From a virus: 64,000 nucleotides of DNA. The position numbers were made by a program, and so were the translations under genes. The notes beneath the pieces are model-generated. The model saw only the letters and a list, made by a program, of their open reading frames with translations. It had not been told where the DNA came from and did no database searches. The DNA lies in IMG/VR virus record IMGVR_UViG_3300022902_000008, one strand, 5' to 3'. Within the stretch, counting starts at the first letter, position 1. Each line of letters opens with the position of its first letter. Below, one piece after another: positions 7,394 through 39,671 of the stretch.

Positions 7394-10300
7394 ATGAAAT
7401 ATGCTTTAGTTCACATTCACTCCAATTTTTCGACATTGGATGCACCTTCTAAGATAAAAAACATCGTCAAAAAGGCAAAAGATATTGGATGTCCTGGCGT
7501 ATCAATTTCTGATCATGGTGTTGCTGGCGGATTGTTGCAAGCATATAATGAATGTAAGTCGCAGGATATCAACTTTATTCCAGGTGTTGAATTTTATGTA
7601 AATAACAATAGAGACTTTAAAGACAAAACAAATAGAAAGAATTTTCACTTATGTTTATTTGCAAAAAACTATGAGGGTTATAAAGATTTAATTTGGTTAC
7701 AAGGAGAGTCAACATATAATTTTTATGGCAAGCCAAGGACAACAAATGAACTTATTTTACAAAAAGCAAAAAAAGGAAATCTTATATGCACAACCGCTTG
7801 TCTTGGTTCTGAATTACATCATTATTTTAAAAACAATGAAATATGCTCAGCAAAAGAGTGGATAAAGAAGTATTACAATGTTTTTGGTGATGATCTTTAC
7901 TTAGAACTACAAATAAACGAACTTACAAAAGAACAAAAAGCTTATAATGATAAACTAATTCAGATTTCCAATAAGACAGGCATAAGTTTAACCCTGGGTT
8001 TAGACTCTCATTATGTTGAAAAGGAAGATTGGTTTCTTCAACAGTTAACATTTCTCATTAGGGACAAAAAGACAGTAAAGAGCTTGGAAAGTAATGATGA
8101 CTCTGGGGAGGAAAAGGGAAAGAAAGATGAGGCATGGCAATTTGAAACAAAAAGTCTTTGGATAAAAACACCTGAAGAAGTTATAGAGTGTAATAAGGAG
8201 TTTGGTTATAATTATTCAATAGACTTTATTAAGAGGTTGTTTAGTTCAACTTTAGAAATCAACTCTAAGGTAGATGTTGAAATTCCTTTTTATGACTATA
8301 AGTTTCCTAAACACAAACATCAGGGTGACATATCTTCAAAACAATTATTGATCAACAAGGCTAAGAGTGGGTTAAAACAAAAGTTAAGTGAAGGTAAGGT
8401 TAAAGAAAAAGACATACCTACTTATGTTGATAGAATAAAAGAAGAGATTGATGTCTTAACTAACCATGGAAGAGATTTCTCAGACTATTTTTTGTTTTTT
8501 GATGATATCAAGAACTTTGTATATGAACAAGGTGGTATGTTGGGTGCTGGTCGAGGTTCTGCTTGCGCCAGCTTGCTATTGTGGTTGCTTGATATAACGA
8601 AGCTAGATCCAATAAAGGATGGTTTGATTTTCGAAAGGTTTATTAATAAAGCAAGGCTGGAGACAGATGCAGCAGATCTTGACATTGATATTAGTAGTGA
8701 TGAGTTGCCGTTGGTCGAAGAGTGGCTAAAGAAAAGATATGGTGAACGCTCTGTTTGTTCTGTGGGCAATTACACTAAGTTCAGTATAAAAAATACAATA
8801 AAAGATGTTGCAAGGGCCTTGGCAGTTGATGATGACTTAAAAGTGATTAACAACATCACTAAAACATTAAATGATAAAAGTGAGGATGTCAATGAGGAGT
8901 GGGCATTAGCAGCAAAAAGGTTTAAAAAGAATTCTAGGGAATACAAATGGCTAGAAAAACATGAGAGAGATGTTCTTAAGTGGAGTAGCAAGTTGGTTGG
9001 CTGTATTAGAAATGTGGGCCAACACGCTTCAGGGCTTGTTGTTGTGCCTGGAGAATTGTATGATCATGTTCCATTGTTGTATCATAAGAAAAAGACGTTG
9101 ACAGCCTATGTAGAGGGCGTTGAATATCGAGAACTTCCACAAGTAGGGGTGTTAAAGTTAGATTTGCTTGGATTGTCAACAGCAGCTATTATTAACAATA
9201 CAATAAAGTTGATTAAAGAGAGACATGATGACTTTCCCTATGATCAAAAAACAATATTTGATATTGATAGAGAAGACAAGAATATTTTAGATGAGTTTGC
9301 AAAAGGGAACACTGATAATTGTTTTCAGTTTGAGTCTGATGGCATGAAAAGCTTATTACAAAATATTTGTGTTAGTAGTTTTAGTGATGTTGTTTTGTGC
9401 AATGCATTATATCGTCCTGGGGCTTTAGGTGCTAATATGCATAATGTGGCTGTTGAAAATAAATTTAAGGGTGATGATATTACATATGTGCATCCGAAAG
9501 TCAAAGGTATTGTAGAAAAGACCTACGGAGTTCCAGCATTTCAGGAGCAAGTTTTGTTCACATTGCAAAAAATTGGCAACTTAAGTTTAAGTGAGAGTGA
9601 TTTGGCTAGAAAAACAATCAAAGCTTTAGGTAAGGCAAAGAAGAGTCCAGAAGAGTTAGAAAAGCTTAATGCATTTTTAAAAACATTTGCAAAGGGTGCA
9701 AAAGAAAATGGCCTTAATGATAAGGAGGTTAGCAAGATTTTAGAGTGGTTAAGAGCAAGCAGTGATTATTCATTCAACAAGTCACACTCAGCAGCATATT
9801 CATTAAACTCATATATTACGTTATGGTTAAAAAAGAATTATCCAATTGAATTCTTTACTGCTGTTTTAGCGAATGTACAATCTAACGAAGAAAAATTATA
9901 TACAACTTTAAGTGAGGCAAGAAAAAATAATGTAAAAATAAATTATATCGATATTAATGAATCTGGTTGGGATTTTTTTATTGTTGATAATGAGATTTAT
10001 TGTGGCTTTGGTTTTCTTAAGGGTACAAGTAAAAAAGATATTAACAAGGTGCTAGCTCTAAGGCCATTTACATCTATAAATGATTTTATACAAAAGGCAT
10101 TGGAACATGGCATATCAAAGAAAACAGTTTATCCATTGATTCAAACAGGTATTACGAGAAATATACATTCTAATGGTAGAGAATTAATAGAGATATATGA
10201 GAGAACAAAAAAGATTTGCAAAAGGAAAAGTTTTGAGTGGGATCAAATTGATGATATAATTACTGAAGTTAGCTTAGAAGATCTTAAGCCATACAACAAA

Positions 10301-21961: not shown

Positions 21962-22291
21962 TTGAAGTCAGGCAGCAAGCTTGGAGAATTAAATCTTTAT
22001 TTTCTTAATTTAGATCAAAAAACATTAGCAGATATGATTTGGAAAGTTAACATCCACCAAGCTCTTTACAAGGGAATAACAATTCCAGATCAAACTTATT
22101 ATGGCCCAGTCATTCTAGATAGAAGAAAAATTGGTTGGGATATATTATTATTTCCAAAAAAAATTAAAATGATTAAAACAAGTGAGTACTACATTGGCGT
22201 AGTAAGATCATCAGCTAACTTTAAAAGCGATAGCCTAGATCTTAATTATGCTATTCATTCAGAAGTGGTTAACAAACTAATAGAAATATGA
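21962..22291 (+). CDS. SH3/KOW-like family member
   Basis: YYGPVIL...LLFPKKI; C-terminus SEVVNK is read from promoter copy 4. Confidence 0.6.
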   Translation: MKSGSKLGELNLYFLNLDQKTLADMIWKVNIHQALYKGITIPDQTYYGPVILDRRKIGWDILLFPKKIKMIKTSEYYIGVVRSSANFKSDSLDLNYAIHSEVVNKLIEI

Positions 22292-24605: not shown

Positions 24606-24948
24606 TTTTTTTATATCCTTTTTAATTGTGTATTATTGTTAATAACTTGTGAGTTATATAATTAATTGTTATGTAAAATAATAATTGTCAGTTTAATAGG
24701 CTTGATTGATGATTGCTTAAAGGGGGGTATAAATTTGACAACAATAACCAACAAATTCTCCACAAGTTTTCCACAATCAAATAACAATAAACTTACAATA
24801 AACAACAAATACAATAATAACAATAAAACCAACAATCAGCAATATTTTTAACAAACCTTTTATCAACCGTATATATTGGCACGGTTATTGATTAGGTTTA
24901 TTTTATCAAGCATATGTCAAAGAGCTTATTTATTCTTTTGACTTCTAA
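24606..24948. other. Candidate DnaA-box replication origin
   Basis: Tandem TTCTCCACA/TTTTCCACA (24756-24775), an opposed degenerate pair at about 24637-24656, A/C-rich tract, apparent strand-bias switch. Confidence 0.5.
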
Positions 24949-25272: not shown

Positions 25273-25622
25273 TGTTCCTTAATTACCAAGTATGTATTGT
25301 TTGTTGTTTTCATGAATCTTATTTTATTTTTCCCCCCCATTATTATTATTGGCCCTGTATATTGATCTGATATCAGGAAGTTATTATTGTGCAGTTTTCC
25401 TTTGATGTGACTATAATGTTGATCATTGAGAAACCATTCTTTATATCCATCAAAACAATCATATGCAGGACCATTTTCACGATGACGTTCTCCACTTAGA
25501 TACCATATTTTTGTTCCGTTGGAATGTTCAATAGCAGGCCCATCAGTTCGATGACACTCTCCATTTAGATACCATCGTTTTGATCCATCAGGATATTCTT
25601 TCATTATTGGCTTGTTGCTCAT
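25269..25622 (-). CDS. HRxDGPA repeat protein (2 repeats) with conserved tail
   Basis: Paralogue of 22884; GGGAGG RBS. Confidence 0.85.
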   Translation of the reverse strand: MSNKPIMKEYPDGSKRWYLNGECHRTDGPAIEHSNGTKIWYLSGERHRENGPAYDCFDGYKEWFLNDQHYSHIKGKLHNNNFLISDQYTGPIIIMGGKNKIRFMKTTNNTYLVIKEQ

Positions 25623-26549: not shown

Positions 26550-26968
26550 TGTTCCTCAATTACCAAATATTTATTGTTTATTGTTCTCATGAACTTTATT
26601 TTATTTTTTCCTCCCATTATTATTACTGGACCTGTATACTGATCTGATACTAAGAAATTGTTGTTGTGCAGCTTCCCTTTGATATGATAATAAAGTATGT
26701 CATTTAGATACCATACAAATGTTCCATCAGAATATTCAACAGCAGGACCATCTTCTCTATGATGGTTCCCATTTAGATACCATGATTTTGTTCCATCAGG
26801 ATATTCAACAGCAGGACCATCAATTCGATGATGCTTTCCATTTAACCACCATTCTTTATGGCCATTAGAATCTTCAACAGCAGGGCCATCAGTTCGATGA
26901 AAATAGCCATTTAGGTGCCATGATTTTGTTCCATTAGGATGTTCTGTCATTATTGGCTTGTTGCTCAT
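26546..26968 (-). CDS. HRxDGPA repeat protein (3 repeats) with conserved tail
   Basis: Three 23-aa HRxDGPAVE repeats. Confidence 0.85.
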   Translation of the reverse strand: MSNKPIMTEHPNGTKSWHLNGYFHRTDGPAVEDSNGHKEWWLNGKHHRIDGPAVEYPDGTKSWYLNGNHHREDGPAVEYSDGTFVWYLNDILYYHIKGKLHNNNFLVSDQYTGPVIIMGGKNKIKFMRTINNKYLVIEEQ

Positions 26969-26992
26969 GATTCCTCCCTTTCAACTGACAAC

Positions 26993-27023
26993 AATATACC
27001 ACAACCAACTTCATTTGTTAACC
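26993..27023 (-). promoter_or_regulatory. Early promoter copy 8 (divergent from copy 9)
   Basis: Minus strand GGTTAACA-17-TGg TATATT. Confidence 0.85.
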
Positions 27024-27063
27024 TATTTCAAGAAATATTTTATTAAAAAAAGTTTATTTATGG

Positions 27064-27094
27064 GGTTAACAAACGGGATAGTTTGTGGTATAAG
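27064..27094 (+). promoter_or_regulatory. Early promoter copy 9
   Basis: GGTTAACA-17-TGg TATAAG. Confidence 0.85.
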
Positions 27095-27119
27095 GGTGTT
27101 GAAGGAGGGAGAAAATAAA

Positions 27120-27374
27120 ATGAGCCAACCAAAATATAAGTTAGGAGACATAGTTTGGGTTAAAACGGATAATACTAATTATCCTGAAGATCTTACTGAT
27201 CATAACAATAACAATAAGATATATTATCAATTAGCAAGGATACAAAATTGGTATTTAAGGGAAAAGGAAGTTTCAGATAAATCTTTTACTATATATACAG
27301 TTAAATATTGTTGCAATACTTTTTTGTTGAACAATGTTTCAGAGATGGAAATACTGAGGAAGGAGGACATTTAA
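27120..27374 (+). CDS. SH3/KOW-like family member
   Basis: MSQPKYKLGDIVWVK...YTVK...VSEMEI; start reset to 27120. Confidence 0.75.
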   Translation: MSQPKYKLGDIVWVKTDNTNYPEDLTDHNNNNKIYYQLARIQNWYLREKEVSDKSFTIYTVKYCCNTFLLNNVSEMEILRKEDI

Positions 27375-27638
27375 ATGCTAACACAGAAGATTTTTAATCC
27401 TGTTGATTATTATTTTGAATGGACTGATGATGGATGGTATGAGTGGGATCGAAGGGCGGCTCACACAATGGCTCTTAAGGATCGGAACAAGAAAGTAAGG
27501 GAGCTAAGAGGGAAAGGACACAAGGTTTCAGTCTTCAGTCTTTCAGGCCAGTTAATTACAAAGGGTGGAATTGGAACTGGGAAGCCTCAAGTAGAGTTTG
27601 TTGTTAATTGTTATGGTTACAATATGTGGGGAAAATAA
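27375..27638 (+). CDS. Hypothetical protein
   Basis: AGGAGG RBS; 87 aa. Confidence 0.7.
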   Translation: MLTQKIFNPVDYYFEWTDDGWYEWDRRAAHTMALKDRNKKVRELRGKGHKVSVFSLSGQLITKGGIGTGKPQVEFVVNCYGYNMWGK

Positions 27639-27639
27639 A

Positions 27640-27990
27640 ATGATTATTAATGGAAAAGAGTATCCAACAGTGTACCCAACTAAGGAAGATGTTGTTTATA
27701 ATTATAAGGTGGGTGACATTATTTATTTTAAGGTATTAAATGACAGTATTTATATTGAAGTGGTTAACCTTGTTAATGATAAGATATTATCTCCTGGCAG
27801 AAGAATTAGTAGAGAAGGAGATTTTTATGTTTTAGATTCTCCTCGTTGTCTCATAGGTATAATTGATTTTTGTGATTATGTTAATGAATGTGATTATTAT
27901 TATCCTGTTTACACTGTTGTTACGCTTAATGATAAGCAATCAATCAATGTTTCAGAATTAGAGATTGTAGAAAGGGTTGAGGCTTCATGA
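27640..27990 (+). CDS. SH3/KOW-like family member
   Basis: YKVGDIIYFK...IGII...YTVV...VSELEI. Confidence 0.7.
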   Translation: MIINGKEYPTVYPTKEDVVYNYKVGDIIYFKVLNDSIYIEVVNLVNDKILSPGRRISREGDFYVLDSPRCLIGIIDFCDYVNECDYYYPVYTVVTLNDKQSINVSELEIVERVEAS

Positions 27991-28373
27991 ACAACAAGCC
28001 AACAATGACAGAACATTCTAATGGAACAAAACATTGGCTTTTAAATGAAAAACTTCATCGAGAAGATGGTCCTGCAATAGTTCGGCCTAATGGAACAAAG
28101 GCATGGTATCTAAATGGAAAACGTCATCGAGAAGATGGGCCTGCTATTGAAAGTCTATATAAAAGAAAAGAATGGTGGTTGAATGGAAAGTGTTATTGTG
28201 ATATTATCAAAGGAAAGTTGCATAACAACAATTTCCTGGTATCAGATCGATATATAGGACTAGTAATAATAATGGGGGGAAAAGAAAGAGTAAGGTTCAT
28301 GAAGACAACAAACAACAAATATTTTGTAATTGAGGAAAATAATACTTCAGAAGTGGTTAACAAACAGGGTTGA
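27987..28373 (+). CDS. HRxDGPA repeat protein (2 repeats) with conserved tail
   Basis: Paralogue of 22884; ends SEVVNKQG inside promoter copy 10. Confidence 0.85.
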   Translation: MNNKPTMTEHSNGTKHWLLNEKLHREDGPAIVRPNGTKAWYLNGKRHREDGPAIESLYKRKEWWLNGKCYCDIIKGKLHNNNFLVSDRYIGLVIIMGGKERVRFMKTTNNKYFVIEENNTSEVVNKQG

Positions 28374-28385
28374 TTGTGTTATAGT
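28355..28385 (+). promoter_or_regulatory. Early promoter copy 10
   Basis: GGTTAACA-17-TGt TATAGT. Confidence 0.85.
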
Positions 28386-28473
28386 GGTTTCAGAGATTGA
28401 CAGAAAGAGAGTTCTTTGACAATAAGGGGGGAAAGAAAAAGAGACAAAAAAAATAAAATTAATTTCAAAAAGT

Positions 28474-28504
28474 GGTTAACAGAATGGTCAAAGTGTGTTA
28501 TAGT
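28474..28504 (+). promoter_or_regulatory. Early promoter copy 11
   Basis: A-tract UP element, GGTTAACA-17-TGt TATAGT. Confidence 0.85.
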
Positions 28505-28667
28505 GGTTTTGTTGATAACGGAGGCCGTCGCTCATTGATAATTTAAAAACGTTAATAATAAAACAAAGAAGGAGGGATATTTATTTTGATTGTTTAAAAT
28601 TTTATTATAAAGACTTGACAGACTTGGTATTAGCATTATATTAAACAGAAGGGAAACATTAGATGAA

Positions 28668-28917
28668 TAGAATTCGAGATCAGACTTAAAAGGTAAATTA
28701 TATTTAAATTTAATTAGATGTTTGATTTGATTGTTAGTTGTTTGATAATAAAATATATAAATAATAATTTAAAATAAAAGGTTAAAACATAATGATTAAT
28801 AATAGAATTCGAGATGGCCCTTGACAATAAATAAACCGAAAGTTTGATTATATAAAATTTAGCATGGAGAAAATAAATTAATGAGTAATATTAGAATTAG
28901 AGATGTGCCTTGACAAT
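28668..28917 (+). repeat. Three TAGAATT(C/A)GAGAT repeats, two followed by CCTTGACAATAAA
   Basis: 28668-28680, 28803-28815, 28892-28904. Confidence 0.75.
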
Positions 28918-29115
28918 AAAATAAAAGTTCTTGGTTGGCTGTAATAGTAAAGTGAGCATGTGTTCATGACACCAACAAGAAGATCCTCTATGTGTTGTTC
29001 ATTGTTAATGTATTATTGTCACTGTTTTTCTGAAAATTTAGGGGAGTTTTTAGAAGTGACAAAAGTGATGTCAATAGCTTTCCTCCTTTCGTTATTGACA
29101 TCTAGTTCTTATCAG

Positions 29116-29146
29116 GGGCCAACGTTCATTGTTGGCCCTTTTTTTT
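29116..29146 (+). terminator. Intrinsic terminator
   Basis: GGGCCAACG-TTCAT-TGTTGGCCC followed by T8. Confidence 0.9.
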
Positions 29147-29182
29147 ATAAGGGAGATAAAAATAAAATTAATCTTCAAAAAT

Positions 29183-29213
29183 GGTTAACAAGCAGAGTTG
29201 TTTATGATATAGT
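29183..29213 (+). promoter_or_regulatory. Early promoter copy 12
   Basis: GGTTAACA-17-TGa TATAGT. Confidence 0.85.
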
Positions 29214-29250
29214 GTGGTTATGTTCAGTTGATAACAACAAAAGGGAGGTC

Positions 29251-29400
29251 ATGATGATTGGAAAGGAAGTAAGGGCAATTGTGGGTTCTTCATTTACTTC
29301 TTATCGATCTGTGATGGTTGATCGTGCAACGAAGGGAAAGGTCAAACTAACCTTCCAGTATGTGAGTACGTTTGGCAAGGATAAAAGGGGAGAGGAATAA
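29251..29400 (+). CDS. Small early protein (49 aa)
   Basis: AAGGGAGG RBS before ATG 29251; the track ORF upstream of this runs through terminator and promoter. Confidence 0.6.
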   Translation: MMIGKEVRAIVGSSFTSYRSVMVDRATKGKVKLTFQYVSTFGKDKRGEE

Positions 29401-29423
29401 AAAATAAAAAACTTTCAAAAAGT

Positions 29424-29454
29424 GGTTAACAAACAAAGTTGTTTATGATATAGT
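29424..29454 (+). promoter_or_regulatory. Early promoter copy 13 (mosaic of copies 12 and 14)
   Basis: 29391-29435 = 29764-29808; 29437-29466 = 29196-29225. Confidence 0.85.
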
Positions 29455-29500
29455 GTGGTTATGTTCGGTTGCAGTTGACAACAACAAGAAGGAGAAACCG

Positions 29501-29773
29501 ATGGAAAGCATAACTGAGAAAGAGAGGAAAGTTCTTCAGGGTATTATTACTAATGATTTTCAGGATGCCGCAACTGGAACTGAGGCTGTGATTATGAATG
29601 ATATTTGGGTTGATTGCCTGGAAGATTCCACAGGAGATATTCGGGGAAAAATTTTGTCTGGTGTGGTTTCTAGCCTTTCTAAAAAAGGCCTTGTCTGGAC
29701 TGATGGGGAAGGTATCGCAATAACTAAGGAGGGATGGACCGTTCTGAACTCAACGAATAGCGAAGAGGAATAA
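29501..29773 (+). CDS. Small winged-helix-like early protein
   Basis: ITEKERKVL...LSGVVSSLSKKGLV...ITKEG; AAGGAG RBS. Confidence 0.6.
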   Translation: MESITEKERKVLQGIITNDFQDAATGTEAVIMNDIWVDCLEDSTGDIRGKILSGVVSSLSKKGLVWTDGEGIAITKEGWTVLNSTNSEEE

Positions 29774-29796
29774 AAAATAAAAAACTTTCAAAAAGT

Positions 29797-29827
29797 GGTT
29801 AACAAACAGGAGGAAGTGTGATATAAA
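29797..29827 (+). promoter_or_regulatory. Early promoter copy 14
   Basis: GGTTAACA-17-TGa TATAAA. Confidence 0.85.
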
Positions 29828-29884
29828 GGTTTCGAAATAAAGGTTGGTAAGTTTAAATTCTAGACGGTTAAAAGGAGGTTTATT

Positions 29885-31030
29885 GTGGCAAAGCTTAACG
29901 TAAAATCAGCACTGAAGGTTCTTGATAATCTGCCGAAAGAGCAGGCCGTTCTCGTTGATGGCCCTCATGGTATTGGCAAGAGTACTATCTTTAGAGATCT
30001 TGCAAAGAAGAGAAATGCACATTTTATCGATATGCGGCTCTCACAGGTTGAGTATGTAGATCTGATTGGTATGCCTCAGTCTGTTAATGGAGAAATGATC
30101 TACTCGTCCCCTTGGTGGCGACGGGAGATTGAGGCATGTGCAGAGAGAGGACAGAACGTTGTTCTCCTTCTTGATGAGATTAACCGTGCTCATCGTGATG
30201 TTCTCCAGTCAGTGTTTCAGTTGATTCTGGATCGTCGTATCCAGGATTGGGCACTTCCATCCAACGTTGACGTGTGGGTGTATGGTGCAGTCAACATGGG
30301 TGATGACTATGACGTGTCTATGATGGACCCTGCACTGTTGGATCGTTTCTATCGGTTTACCCTTGAGCCATCACCGGCAGAGTGGCTGAGGTGGTCAAAG
30401 AGCGTTGGTATCCATCGTGCAATTCACATGTTCATTGAAAAGAACCATAACTATTTGTATTTCACTGGCACGCCTGAAGAGGGCCGGATTTATCCTTCTC
30501 CTCGTTCATGGGCTATGCTTTCTAATTGTATGAATCTAAACAAAAAACTTGTTGACGATCATCATGCTCTTACTCTTCTCTCAATGGGTTTTGTTGGTGA
30601 AGAAGGGGCAACTAGGTTTGTTGACTTTGTAAAGAAGGAGTTTAATCAAATGACAGCAAAAGACATTCTTGAAAAATGGAAGGACCGGGGGCAGGATATT
30701 ACTGAACTGGTAACTGATGATGTGGTTGAGGCTTCAACTCTCATGGATCAGTGCATTGAGTTTTTCCGTGCAAAGGGAGAGGATGGGGTTAAGCCTCGTC
30801 ACATTAAGAACTTTACTGAGTATATGTTGATTGTCCCACTGGATGTGATCAACTATGCATGGCAGGCTCTCCAGGAGTACACTGAGGATGGTGGTGACGT
30901 AAAGAACATCAACTTTGTGGCCTCAAAGCTTGGTGATGATGAGCGGATCAGGACTAGGGTGGTGGAAGCCAATAGCGAGTGGATCAGGGAAGAGCAGGAG
31001 AAAGTAAAGAAGGGTGCCGAGGGCGAATAA
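29885..31030 (+). CDS. MoxR/AAA_5-type AAA+ ATPase
   Basis: Walker A GPHGIGKS, Walker B LLLDEINRA, DPALLDRF, SPRSW; AAAGGAGG RBS, GTG start. Confidence 0.92.
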   Translation: MAKLNVKSALKVLDNLPKEQAVLVDGPHGIGKSTIFRDLAKKRNAHFIDMRLSQVEYVDLIGMPQSVNGEMIYSSPWWRREIEACAERGQNVVLLLDEINRAHRDVLQSVFQLILDRRIQDWALPSNVDVWVYGAVNMGDDYDVSMMDPALLDRFYRFTLEPSPAEWLRWSKSVGIHRAIHMFIEKNHNYLYFTGTPEEGRIYPSPRSWAMLSNCMNLNKKLVDDHHALTLLSMGFVGEEGATRFVDFVKKEFNQMTAKDILEKWKDRGQDITELVTDDVVEASTLMDQCIEFFRAKGEDGVKPRHIKNFTEYMLIVPLDVINYAWQALQEYTEDGGDVKNINFVASKLGDDERIRTRVVEANSEWIREEQEKVKKGAEGE

Positions 31031-31048
31031 ACAACAAGCAGTTCTTTG

Positions 31049-31080
31049 GGGGGCGCAATGCCCCCTTACTTATTTCTTTG
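31049..31080 (+). terminator. Probable intrinsic terminator
   Basis: GGGGGC-GCAAT-GCCCCC followed by a T-rich tail. Confidence 0.65.
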
Positions 31081-31109
31081 GTAATAACAATCAACAATGA
31101 GGTTGTCTT

Positions 31110-31634
31110 ATGGGAAGACTAAAAGGTACAATTAACAAAAAGACTCTTGCAAAGAAAGCAATTGCATATTCTTTAGGGGACATAAAAAAGCTTTCAGAAA
31201 GCATATTGAATAAAATGTATCGCAATAATATTATTGATGAGAACACAGACAAGCCAACCAGTGATTGTTATAAGTTAATGTCACTTGAAGAATATAAGAA
31301 TATTAAATCAGGCAAGAAGAAGAAAAAGCAACAAGAGGCAACGGAAACAACAAACATCACAAAGTACTTCTTTTATAAAACAAGCAATCTAAAGAAGTTT
31401 GGCACAAAAAAATATATTTGGAAAATGGTTGATCGAGACTATGGACTTCAGGTTCATGGCATCAATGAGATAGAAGCAAAGTTATTTGCAAAGCATATTA
31501 ATTGCATAATATACGCTGAAGAGCTTATGGGTAATAAAAAAGAAAAGTTTTATTGTTTCAAAAAACAGTATTCAAATATGATATCAGCAAGAAAGTGGGC
31601 GAAGCAATCAGGCTTTGAGTTTATAAAGGAGTGA
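31110..31634 (+). CDS. Hypothetical basic protein
   Basis: 174 aa ORF. Confidence 0.6.
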   Translation: MGRLKGTINKKTLAKKAIAYSLGDIKKLSESILNKMYRNNIIDENTDKPTSDCYKLMSLEEYKNIKSGKKKKKQQEATETTNITKYFFYKTSNLKKFGTKKYIWKMVDRDYGLQVHGINEIEAKLFAKHINCIIYAEELMGNKKEKFYCFKKQYSNMISARKWAKQSGFEFIKE

Positions 31635-31834
31635 GACAACAAGCAACAAACACTTGGTAATATCTAAACCTAAAAAACGATCTAACAATTAAGGCCCATT
31701 GACATCAATACCCTTGACAATCAATTTATTTTACAATCAAATGTCGGAAACTAGTTTATAGACAGCAAAATCCATGCTACCATTAAAAACAACTTAACAG
31801 ACACAGCAACCCAGGGGGTAGACAAAAAAACATT

Positions 31835-32317
31835 ATGGGAAAAATAAAAAGAAATACAACAAAGAATAAAGAAAAAGAATTACAAAATAACAATAAACAA
31901 CATATAGAAGATACACAAAAAGAATCAACAAAGAATAAAGAAAAAGATTCTGTTGAACAAGAAGATTGCAATAAGAACAACAAAGAGAAAGGGGATCAAA
32001 AAAAAGATATTAATACTTTAGATAATATCCAACATGAACTACAAAATGCAATAGGCCTTGTCAAATCATTAGAATCAAAATATAAAGAAGCAAGGTATAA
32101 AGAAGATGAACCAAAAAGATTACTATTCAGTTATATTATAGATAACTTGCTCCCAGAAGAAAATAGAACAAAAGAAAAGTTACATGATGAACTTAGTACT
32201 TATGGACAAGAAGTATTCTATAAAAAAGATACATTACATAATAAGCTATTCATGGTCGCAGAAAACCTATTAAGCTTTATTAAGTTAAATAAAGAAAGAA
32301 TATTTAAGGATAATTAA
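31835..32317 (+). CDS. Hypothetical protein, low-complexity N-terminus
   Basis: 160 aa; TKNKEK repeated. Confidence 0.55.
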   Translation: MGKIKRNTTKNKEKELQNNNKQHIEDTQKESTKNKEKDSVEQEDCNKNNKEKGDQKKDINTLDNIQHELQNAIGLVKSLESKYKEARYKEDEPKRLLFSYIIDNLLPEENRTKEKLHDELSTYGQEVFYKKDTLHNKLFMVAENLLSFIKLNKERIFKDN

Positions 32318-32319
32318 TC

Positions 32320-32598
32320 ATGAGCACTATCTTATGGCTATTATTAATATTGTTTGTTGCGTTCTTAGGAACATTTCAATTATTAGCATTAATGTTTATT
32401 ATAATGTTCTTAGTAGCATGTACACCAGCAATTGTTGTGTTGACTATTGGAATATACTTAACAATAAAGATAGGTGGGTTCATTGGTGCATTGTTGGTAA
32501 TATTAACATTGTTTGGTGCAGGGTTTGTAACTTATCATTGGTTCGAAAGTGGAGCAGTTGATGCAATTACAAAGACCCTTGGTATGGACAATTGGTAA
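32320..32598 (+). CDS. Membrane protein (about 3 TM helices)
   Basis: Continuous hydrophobic stretches. Confidence 0.65.
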   Translation: MSTILWLLLILFVAFLGTFQLLALMFIIMFLVACTPAIVVLTIGIYLTIKIGGFIGALLVILTLFGAGFVTYHWFESGAVDAITKTLGMDNW

Positions 32599-32852
32599 AA
32601 GAAATAAAAAAATGGAACAAAGGTGATATTGTTTGGGTCAAAGTAAATACTTATATGTGTGGATCAGAAAGCGAAAAGAGATATGATAACCCTCCTCTAT
32701 ATAAAGGACCAGCAATTATTGTCAGTGTTAATTACAATTTAAGTTATAGGCCTATATATAGAATCAAAACAATGTATGATCGCAATGTCTTGTACAATTA
32801 TAATTATAGAATAACAGAAGAAAATATATTGTACAAGATACCCCAAGGTTAA
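32592..32852 (+). CDS. SH3/KOW-like family member
   Basis: WNKGDIVWVK...YKGPAII...YRIK...ITEENI. Confidence 0.78.
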   Translation: MVKEIKKWNKGDIVWVKVNTYMCGSESEKRYDNPPLYKGPAIIVSVNYNLSYRPIYRIKTMYDRNVLYNYNYRITEENILYKIPQG

Positions 32853-32942
32853 CATTGTAGTAATAATAGTAAAAAAAAATGTATTTAATGTTATATATAA
32901 TATATATATTATTATATTAACATTTTCAACGGAGGTTAAGCA

Positions 32943-33353
32943 ATGAAAAACAAATTTAAATCTATAGTAAAGAATATTATTAAAGAAGAGACTAGAAAGC
33001 TTATAAAGGAGGCTAGCTATAAAGATTTAACAGATGAAGAGAAAGACTTTTACAACACAACAAAAGGCCTTAATCGTGGTAAAGTTATTAAAGTTAACTT
33101 TCCCGCAACTACCATTAAAACTAAACTTGGCTGGGGATCAGGCACCACACCATCTATACCAGACATGTCTAACCTGTTAGATTTATATTGGAATAACGTT
33201 AAAGATGAGGTGCTTAATAGCATATTAAATTCATCTGAGTATTTAAATTATGAAGATCAACTTAAAGATATATCTAGAGAAGTAGGAGATAATGAAAGGT
33301 TCTGGGATTTTGTTAATAAGACTGGCCCTTGTCCTTCTGGCAATTGTGGCTAA
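32943..33353 (+). CDS. Probable virion internal protein
   Basis: N-terminal IIKEETRKLIKE/A motif; GGAGG RBS. Confidence 0.6.
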   Translation: MKNKFKSIVKNIIKEETRKLIKEASYKDLTDEEKDFYNTTKGLNRGKVIKVNFPATTIKTKLGWGSGTTPSIPDMSNLLDLYWNNVKDEVLNSILNSSEYLNYEDQLKDISREVGDNERFWDFVNKTGPCPSGNCG

Positions 33354-33407
33354 CCAACCCTTCCTTCCAATATATCTGCATATACAATAAAATTAATTCT
33401 TAAAAAT

Positions 33408-33438
33408 GGTTAACAAATCAAGGTACTTATGGTATAGT
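33408..33438 (+). promoter_or_regulatory. Early promoter copy 15
   Basis: GGTTAACA-17-TGg TATAGT. Confidence 0.85.
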
Positions 33439-33498
33439 ATGATTGCAAGTCAGGGATAAGTACTTGACAATAAAAGAAAGGGGGGGGAAAAAAAGAAA

Positions 33499-33804
33499 AT
33501 GATAACTGAAGGAACCATGCTGTGGGTTAGTGAAGTTGCATTGTATTCTTATGTTACTCCTCCAGGTTGTTATAAAGGTGCCTATAAGAAAGTAATGGAC
33601 TATTCAGGACCAGTTAATGTTGTTGTTGTTGAACCATTAATGAATGAAGAAGACAGAGGGAAGCTGGTTAGTCATGATTATGAACGTGTAGTGTCCGTTG
33701 AGATATGTGTGATTACTAAAGTAGATAGTAATGATTATCATGACAATACGTTTATTATGATAGTTGATGATGAGGATAAGAGTGTGAAGAGGATGAACGG
33801 ATAA
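33499..33804 (+). CDS. SH3/KOW-like family member
   Basis: ITEGTMLWVS...YSGPVNV. Confidence 0.6.
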   Translation: MITEGTMLWVSEVALYSYVTPPGCYKGAYKKVMDYSGPVNVVVVEPLMNEEDRGKLVSHDYERVVSVEICVITKVDSNDYHDNTFIMIVDDEDKSVKRMNG

Positions 33805-33835
33805 AAGATATATATATAAATTAATGATTGTAGGT

Positions 33836-33866
33836 GGTTAACAGATGAGGTTGATTGTGGTATATT
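33836..33866 (+). promoter_or_regulatory. Early promoter copy 16
   Basis: GGTTAACA-17-TGg TATATT. Confidence 0.85.
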
Positions 33867-33872
33867 GTGTGT

Positions 33873-33954
33873 AGGTGGATGGTTGGATTGTTATGTCCTG
33901 GAGACAGGACACCGCAGACTTAAAGTTAGCGTATATGCGGGTTGACCCATTTTT
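33873..33954 (+). ncRNA. Candidate small structured RNA
   Basis: GC-rich island right after the promoter; TGTCCTG-GAGA-CAGGACA hairpin, CCGCA/TGCGG stem, T run. Confidence 0.45.
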
Positions 33955-34092
33955 ATTGGACAGATAATTTTTTTGATATTGGAATTGTTGATTTAAGGGG
34001 TTAAACAACAATAACCAACAATAAAGACGATCAACAATATGTTTAATATAATAAAATTCAAAAGACATGTTTAAATATTAATAAAAGGAGAT

Positions 34093-39616: not shown

Positions 39617-39671
39617 TTTTAAGAGAGTGTGGTGTAGGTGTTTTGGTGTTGATAACAAGGAGGTAGTTAAA

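Follow-up and report, generated by a model that had tools for sequence, protein, structure and literature searches.

The DNA analysed here, a stretch of 64,000 nucleotides that we call the window (IMG/VR record IMGVR_UViG_3300022902_000008), is part of the genome of an uncultured jumbo phage of about 217 kb with 30% G+C, which is known only from metagenome assemblies, the longest contig measuring 216,854 bp. The phage encodes a DnaE-type polymerase, a MoxR-like ATPase and a tRNA nucleotidyltransferase. Almost all genes beyond about 27 kb lie on the + strand, and many of them form single-gene cassettes behind a repeated host-type promoter composed of GGTTAACA, a 17-nt spacer and a TG-extended TATAGT or TATAAG. 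Promoters of the GGTTAACA type are present in 25 copies in the window. The MoxR-like ATPase region spans 29501–31030; in three distant jumbo-phage relatives (L015, L017 and L019; about 7650–9070) the ATPase is likewise preceded by an ORF of 88–90 amino acids and followed by a DUF2201-type partner, which in the present phage is replaced by an unrelated ORF of 174 amino acids.

The Shine-Dalgarno (SD) sites at 25622, 26968, 29885 and 37293, which an earlier reading of this DNA (here called the original prediction) had cited as potential targets of a regulatory RNA, are real. The same reading had assumed leaderless mRNAs that would escape such regulation. Three early promoters have an ATG 6–7 nt past the −10 element, which opens candidate leaderless ORFs of 70, 89 and 107 codons (3292, 4904 and 34534, respectively), so that the assumption is plausible. 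A leaderless class of early mRNAs probably exists, and its candidates coexist with early genes having very strong SDs; a promoter at 22267 is listed alongside these sites. Many early leaders furthermore carry a GTTGA(T/C)AA box just past the predicted transcription start (28511–28524, 29227, 29474, 36140, 38481, 39648 and 44086), and at 28511 and 38481 GG(G)AG comes immediately after this box but leads to no start codon.

Folding of the segment 29016–29146 revealed three consecutive hairpins on the + strand, designated H1, H2 and H3 (Table 1), at the positions where the original prediction had placed them. The whole module reaches −50.9 kcal/mol, corresponding to a z-score of −6.27 in comparison with shuffled sequences, and the single hairpins −16.4 (H1, z −4.2), −13.4 (H2, z −7.9) and −17.5 kcal/mol (H3, z −5.1). 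For none of the three was this stability matched by any of 200 dinucleotide shuffles, and the H2 fold makes up 96% of the ensemble. The reverse strand of the module folds less well (−35.1 kcal/mol, with −7.5, −10.0 and −15.0 kcal/mol for H1, H2 and H3), and the four G.U pairs, three in H1 and one in H2, turn into C.A mismatches there. Because these pairs are lost and the fold of the reverse strand is weaker, we regard the structure as one that is formed at the RNA level and specifically on the + strand. A weaker hairpin at 28925–28977 was rejected as a fourth member of the module, as it is no more stable than its shuffles (z 0.18).

Table 1. Features of the hairpin module and of the transcription unit that leads into it (window coordinates).
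Feature	Position	Strand	Description
Early promoter, copy 1	28357–28385	+	TTAACA, 17 nt, TG-extended TATAGT; predicted start ~28392
boxA-like box	28411–28422	+	GTTCTTTGACAA; ~20 nt after first predicted start
Orphan purine/SD-like tract	28424–28444	+	AAGGGGGGAAAG...; no ORF behind
Early promoter, copy 2	28476–28504	+	119 bp after copy 1; predicted start ~28511
Orphan strong SD	28565–28577	+	AAAGAAGGAGGGA; only a 3–4 codon frame after it
Third promoter	28615–28642	+	TTGACA-16-TATATT, 11/12 matches; predicted start ~28649
Mini-ORF 1	28663–28689	+	MNRIRDQT
Mini-ORF 2	28792–28824	+	MINNRIRDGP
Mini-ORF 3	28881–28913	+	MSNIRIRDVP
Hairpin H1	29016–29062	+	8 bp, 5-nt bulge, then 11 bp including three G.U
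Hairpin H2	29067–29102	+	12 contiguous pairs (one G.U), 12-nt loop
Anti-SD loop	29079–29090	+	UUUCCUCCUUUC, also given as TTTCCTCCTTTC; 12 nt, in H2
H3, intrinsic terminator	29114–29146	+	11-bp G+C-rich stem, 5-nt loop, T8
Next early promoter	29185–29213	+	opens following cassette (SD 29243, ATG 29254); downstream limit of the unit

H3 is a genuine intrinsic terminator, as the description of the third hairpin as a strong terminator had implied, and it is locally unique: a terminator scan of the window identified it as the only strong canonical intrinsic terminator within 64 kb, and the strongest one. When the 100 simple + strand hairpins of the window with at least 10 contiguous pairs and a loop of 3–14 nt were ranked by stability, H3 came first and H2 tied for third place.

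The loop of H2 is a C/U-rich seed and the complement of GAAAGGAGGAAA. The claim that the 12-bp stem exposes a perfect anti-SD was borne out by the partition function, which leaves the loop 100% unpaired (probability 1.00) both in the module itself and in RNAs that begin at 28649 or further downstream. The nine bases at the 3′ side of the loop are identical to CCUCCUUUC, which we take to be the type of tail found on 16S rRNA. The sequence TTCCTCCTT is found once in 64 kb, and H2 is the only stable hairpin of the window with CCTCC in its loop; we estimate that chance would place about 0.07 CCTCC in the 100 hairpin loops taken together. The apex of H1, GGGGAG (29040–29046), is itself SD-like and may form a kissing contact of 6–7 bp with positions 29083–29088 of the H2 loop. 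This pairing was calculated at −7.9 kcal/mol, and the two elements could thereby make up an internal SD/anti-SD pair inside the module.

Within 28755–29184 there is no + strand promoter of at least 9 out of 12 matches, and the + strand promoters nearest to the module lie 370–660 nt upstream of it. As no promoter is located directly upstream, the module is probably not a stand-alone small gene. Hence, of the term sRNA-like 3′ module used in the original prediction, the part concerning the 3′ module fits, whereas a compact sRNA is unlikely for want of a dedicated promoter in front. The module probably closes an untranslated unit whose length would be about 500, 640 or 760 nt, and processing of this RNA could yield a shorter stable 3′ fragment. 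No ORF of at least 40 codons is found behind the second copy of the early promoter, no + strand ORF of at least 20 codons clear of promoters lies between the stacked promoters and the terminator, and ahead of the terminator, with three promoters upstream, no ORF longer than 10 codons is credible. The course of the predicted transcript from the early promoters to the terminator at 29146 follows directly from the sequence, and we are largely confident that an untranslated early + strand transcript ends with this structured module and its terminator.

The box GTTCTTTGACAA at 28411 is the sole perfect match in 64 kb to GYTCTTTRAMAA, which we take to be the degenerate boxA consensus; with one mismatch allowed, 16 matches were obtained against 8.0 ± 2.7 expected. 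The untranslated unit has this box soon after its predicted start of transcription, and a role in antitermination is possible. A second boxA-like box, GCTCTTTGACAT, is present on the − strand at 24914–24925. Both boxes are situated 20–30 nt after early promoters, and the transcripts behind them begin with long untranslated stretches. Together they suggest a protection of non-coding transcription of the rrn type.

Several other elements of the unit recall translation signals. In addition to the orphan purine tract and the orphan strong SD given in Table 1, which form duplexes of −14.2 and −14.6 kcal/mol, respectively, with the H2 loop, a further orphan SD-like purine tract occurs at 28520. The three mini-ORFs (8–10 codons) have N-(R/I)-I-R-D in common, and each is preceded at 9–11 nt by a weak SD-like run; two of them end with Pro-TGA within a recurring CCTTGACAATAA box. 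Their R-I-R core conforms to +X+, an arrest motif found in leader peptides that sense macrolides. All three belong to diverged tandem repeats (D9, D12), and they may be translated or else be a by-product of repeated DNA. The hexamer TTGACA occurs six times on the + strand within the 700 bp from 28397 to 29100, where we estimate about 0.2 from composition, and most of these copies are not at promoter spacing from any −10 element. Window-wide, TTGACA is found 44 times on the + and 23 times on the − strand.

The H2 loop pairs with every strong SD. For the first genes behind early promoters the mean pairing energy is −9.9 kcal/mol as compared to −6.1 kcal/mol for other genes (Mann-Whitney p 2e-4). 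Since the loop mimics the anti-SD of the ribosome itself, this trend is uninformative with respect to targeting; it shows only that the first early genes have strong SDs and nothing specific about targets. Within the window, no site with up to two mismatches to the loop 12-mer stands out, and no seed complementarity to ribosome-binding regions beyond that of any anti-SD was found. Pairing extended into the 3′ arm of H2 was matched or beaten by 19–45 of 200 shuffled arms and is not above chance. Similarly, extra pairing of this arm with TGAYAA boxes upstream of early SDs was considered and dismissed as not significant in comparison with shuffled arms.

Accessibility of the loop differs among the predicted isoforms. 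It is fully free in silico in the RNA starting at 28649, while in the 28392 isoform the partition function pairs it with the purine tract 28424–28435 at a probability of about 1. In the 28511 isoform, nucleotides 28511–28520 pair with the 3′ arm of H2 and the last loop base (29090–29099) at a probability of about 0.6–0.7, which opens H2; the CCUCC core pairs with 28521–28524 at about 0.2–0.3 only, and the loop is about 60% unpaired. These long-range pairings are weak, as the full-length folds barely beat their shuffles (z −1.7).

Comparison with related sequences (window 26885–34030; contigs L001–L014) revealed an essentially clonal phage: a single SNP was found in all among 13 contigs, which were compared over up to 7 kb and come from several ENA, JGI and Logan datasets unrelated to one another, and the segment 28500–29260 is 100% identical over the nine contigs aligned there. 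The fourteenth contig, L013, carries a 373-bp deletion elsewhere (29436–29808 region, one gene), which arose by recombination between 45-bp promoter-linked repeats. No DNA match to the phage was found among 50,697 phage records (INPHARED), and neither a 20-mer of the loop nor a 17-mer of the promoter occurs in IMG/VR; two 20-mer matches in species genomes were discarded as chance hits with no other similarity. For the flanking MoxR-like ATPase no homologue falls between 39% and 100% identity, and the loci of four homologues at 36–39% contain no comparable hairpin. The nearest DnaE relatives (57% identity) are encoded on contigs of at most 11 kb, which are too short to reach the region. The best relative in IMG/VR, a phage of 207 kb with 36% DnaE identity, was read over its whole length and has neither a GGTTAACA promoter nor an anti-SD hairpin ahead of any terminator.

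By analogy with LhrC, RsaE, RoxS and c4, an SD-occluding regulator would be the most likely function of this RNA, a view that we hold tentatively. Transcription would start from the early host-type promoters at about 28392, 28511 and/or 28649, cross the boxA-like box, the orphan SDs and the three mini-ORFs, and stop at the terminator at 29146. The pyrimidine loop of H2, 12 nt long, would copy the anti-SD tail of 16S rRNA (CCUCCUUUC) and pair with ribosome-binding sites of the GGAGG type in competition with 30S subunits. The greatest effect would fall on the extended, strong SDs of the first early genes and on comparable SDs of the host, and messages that are leaderless or have a weak SD would escape. 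Stability would come from H1 and the terminator, and upstream purine tracts may mask the loop in the longer isoforms. Repression of SD-led mRNAs is what we infer from shape and sequence. In favour of SD occlusion are the stable, + strand-specific fold, the unique terminator, the unpaired loop whose CCTCC recurs in no other stable hairpin loop, the three stacked promoters, the better pairing of the first early genes, the apparently leaderless mRNAs and the sRNA build of the weak Rfam matches. Against it count the missing dedicated promoter just upstream, the chance-level pairing of the extension into the 3′ arm, the effect that the RNA would also have on the strongest SDs of the phage itself, and the predicted masking of the loop in silico in the two longer isoforms. 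A far-reaching version, which we consider quite unlikely, is that an rrn-like unit mass-produces a decoy of the 16S anti-SD which would coat the strong SDs of host and early phage messages and shift translation to leaderless and weak-SD genes, amounting to a global switch in the mode of translation initiation by RNA alone; the isoforms from the upstream promoters would be self-masked by their orphan SD tracts.

That the region instead codes for a protein is very unlikely, although two frames deserve attention. A + strand frame of 146 codons (28960–29400) stays open over the hairpins, past the terminator and a full promoter, and into a gene of 48 codons. Its 98 codons ahead of the ATG at 29254 were open in just 7 of 20,000 composition-matched shuffles, which is unexpected. 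Such a reading frame would have to pass the strongest terminator and a complete early promoter before reaching a strong SD and an ATG (29243–29256). Its codon usage across the hairpins does not exceed that of random open sequence (z 0.9), gene finders applied to several contigs disagree on five different starts (110 to 144 amino acids), and a search of 1.84 billion representative proteins returned only the frame itself. On the minus strand, where the loop would serve as ribosome-binding site, GGAGG is followed after an ideal spacing of 7 nt by a TTG at 29074–29072, the tenth codon of the frame 29101–28988, which opens a 28-codon peptide ending at 28988. The original prediction had named a translated minus-strand peptide as the case that would speak against a regulatory RNA. 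This peptide is unlikely: no promoter for it is seen within 2 kb, it was predicted by no gene caller, the strand folds more weakly, and the T-run of the terminator serves the + strand. The minus strand of H2 also invites a highly improbable reading at the DNA level, in which the hairpin is an inverted copy of an early-gene leader (TGAYAA box and SD) and acts as a protein-binding repeat or is a leftover of recombination among cassettes. It resembles the leaders at 39648 (GTTGATAAC and AAGGAGG) and 33463 (TTGACAATAA ... GGGGGG), and the six TTGACA hexamers of 28397–29100, where about 0.2 are expected, agree with such an origin. Yet the repeat contains one G.T, which makes it imperfect as DNA but can pair in RNA, H1 depends on three G.U pairs, and an exact anti-SD as the spacer of a 12-bp stem, 11 nt before a terminator, is better suited to a role as RNA.

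Among the explanations that accept an RNA, a passive terminator or 3′-stability module is possible but doubtful. The promoters would then fire into a non-coding, repeat-derived stretch, the hairpins and the terminator would only halt this transcription ahead of the next cassette and shield the 3′ end, and the CCUCC loop would be functionless. The region is indeed a mosaic of cassette remnants and tandem duplications (D9, D12), including an orphan leader remnant at 28411–28435 that resembles the real leader at 33463; the sole strong terminator is placed exactly between two cassettes, and no target specificity could be shown. For that job, however, the terminator alone would suffice, whereas H1 and H2 are each far beyond shuffles in stability and + strand-specific, and a perfect 12-nt anti-SD in one of the top three simple hairpins is unlikely by chance (about 0.07 CCTCC expected). 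Pairing in cis is an unlikely function of the same loop: it would bind the SD-like tracts of its own unit (28424, 28520 and 28565) and control 30S loading, RNA stability or translation of the mini-ORFs, with promoter choice freeing the loop. The best two partners within the unit, at −14.2 and −14.6 kcal/mol, and the masked loop of the 28392 isoform are in favour of this idea. Moreover, orphan SDs that bind 30S subunits and stabilise RNA are known in Gram-positive bacteria, examples being the STAB-SD of cryIIIA and the early-RNA stabiliser of phage SP82. Long-range pairs in RNAs of 640–760 nt are unreliable, though, with folds barely above shuffles (z −1.7), the 12-bp stem of H2 forms locally and co-transcriptionally, and the SDs of the mini-ORFs bind the loop weakly (−6 to −8 kcal/mol).

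If SD occlusion by the H2 loop is true, the RNA would represent a viral regulator that imitates the mRNA-recognition sequence of the ribosome. Translation of host and early genes would be shut off without a protein factor, and this could explain the temporal separation of adjacent SD-led and apparently leaderless early genes. The unit combines three promoters, decoy SDs and mini-ORFs with a boxA-like box and one terminator in 800 bp, which makes it a compact test case from which one might learn how untranslated RNA is expressed and protected in jumbo phages. Should the loop have no activity, the region would simply be a well-made insulator that separates the transcription of early gene cassettes.

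A search of the whole window with the 4227 models of Rfam 15, including RsaE, RNAIII, LhrC and C4, gave no match at gathering thresholds. Below threshold, matches to VrrA (24.7 of 50), DapZ (26.6 of 56) and mmgR (22.4 of 41; given as score of threshold, E 0.03–0.1) as well as to PsrR1 were obtained, all on the + strand. Like the element, all four sRNAs present their seed on a hairpin and end with a terminator, the seed of VrrA, DapZ and mmgR being a pyrimidine one as well. With scores of about half the thresholds, the matches to these three are a resemblance in shape, not homology.

Two further systems for comparison are c4 and the rrn-type leaders. The c4 RNA of phages P1 and P7 is an antisense RNA that derives from the upstream region of an operon and pairs through its loops with a ribosome-binding site, which it thereby hides. 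Both c4 and the present element are phage RNAs, but c4 acts on one specific site in its own operon via two loops, whereas no specific target stands out for the element, which does not match the C4 model of Rfam either. With rrn-type leaders the unit shares tandem promoters (119 bp apart), the boxA-like GTTCTTTGACAA, a long untranslated structured RNA and a strong closing terminator. This likeness refers to a comparison of the box sequence only; no boxB or boxC was identified, and apart from the 9-nt tail motif the element does not resemble rRNA.

Occlusion of SDs by exposed CU-rich loops has been established for LhrC (PMC4132741), RsaE (PMC6158497) and RoxS (PMC5419742). The LhrC sRNAs of Listeria (RF00616) use CU-rich motifs for pairing with the ribosome-binding region of their targets and thus block translation (PMC4132741). 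Like the element, they display such motifs on hairpins ending with a terminator. They differ in having three redundant UCCC sites instead of a single perfect anti-SD of 12 nt, and in being RNAs of about 100 nt with their own regulated promoter, while the element is phage-borne and located at the end of a unit of 0.5–0.76 kb; there is no sequence or model match between the two. In RsaE/RoxS and in RNAIII of S. aureus, which are sRNAs of Firmicutes, unpaired C-rich seeds bind SDs (PMC6158497, PMC5419742, PMC8216469), an analogy that the original prediction had drawn for RNAIII and RsaE. These seeds are CCCC or UCCC and conserved across Bacillales, in contrast to the CCUCC with flanking U-runs that is found in one clonal phage. 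The element matches none of these RNAs in Rfam, and its seed mimics the 16S tail. It belongs to no described family, and it would be of a known kind, namely that of sRNAs which mask ribosome-binding sites with a CU-rich loop.
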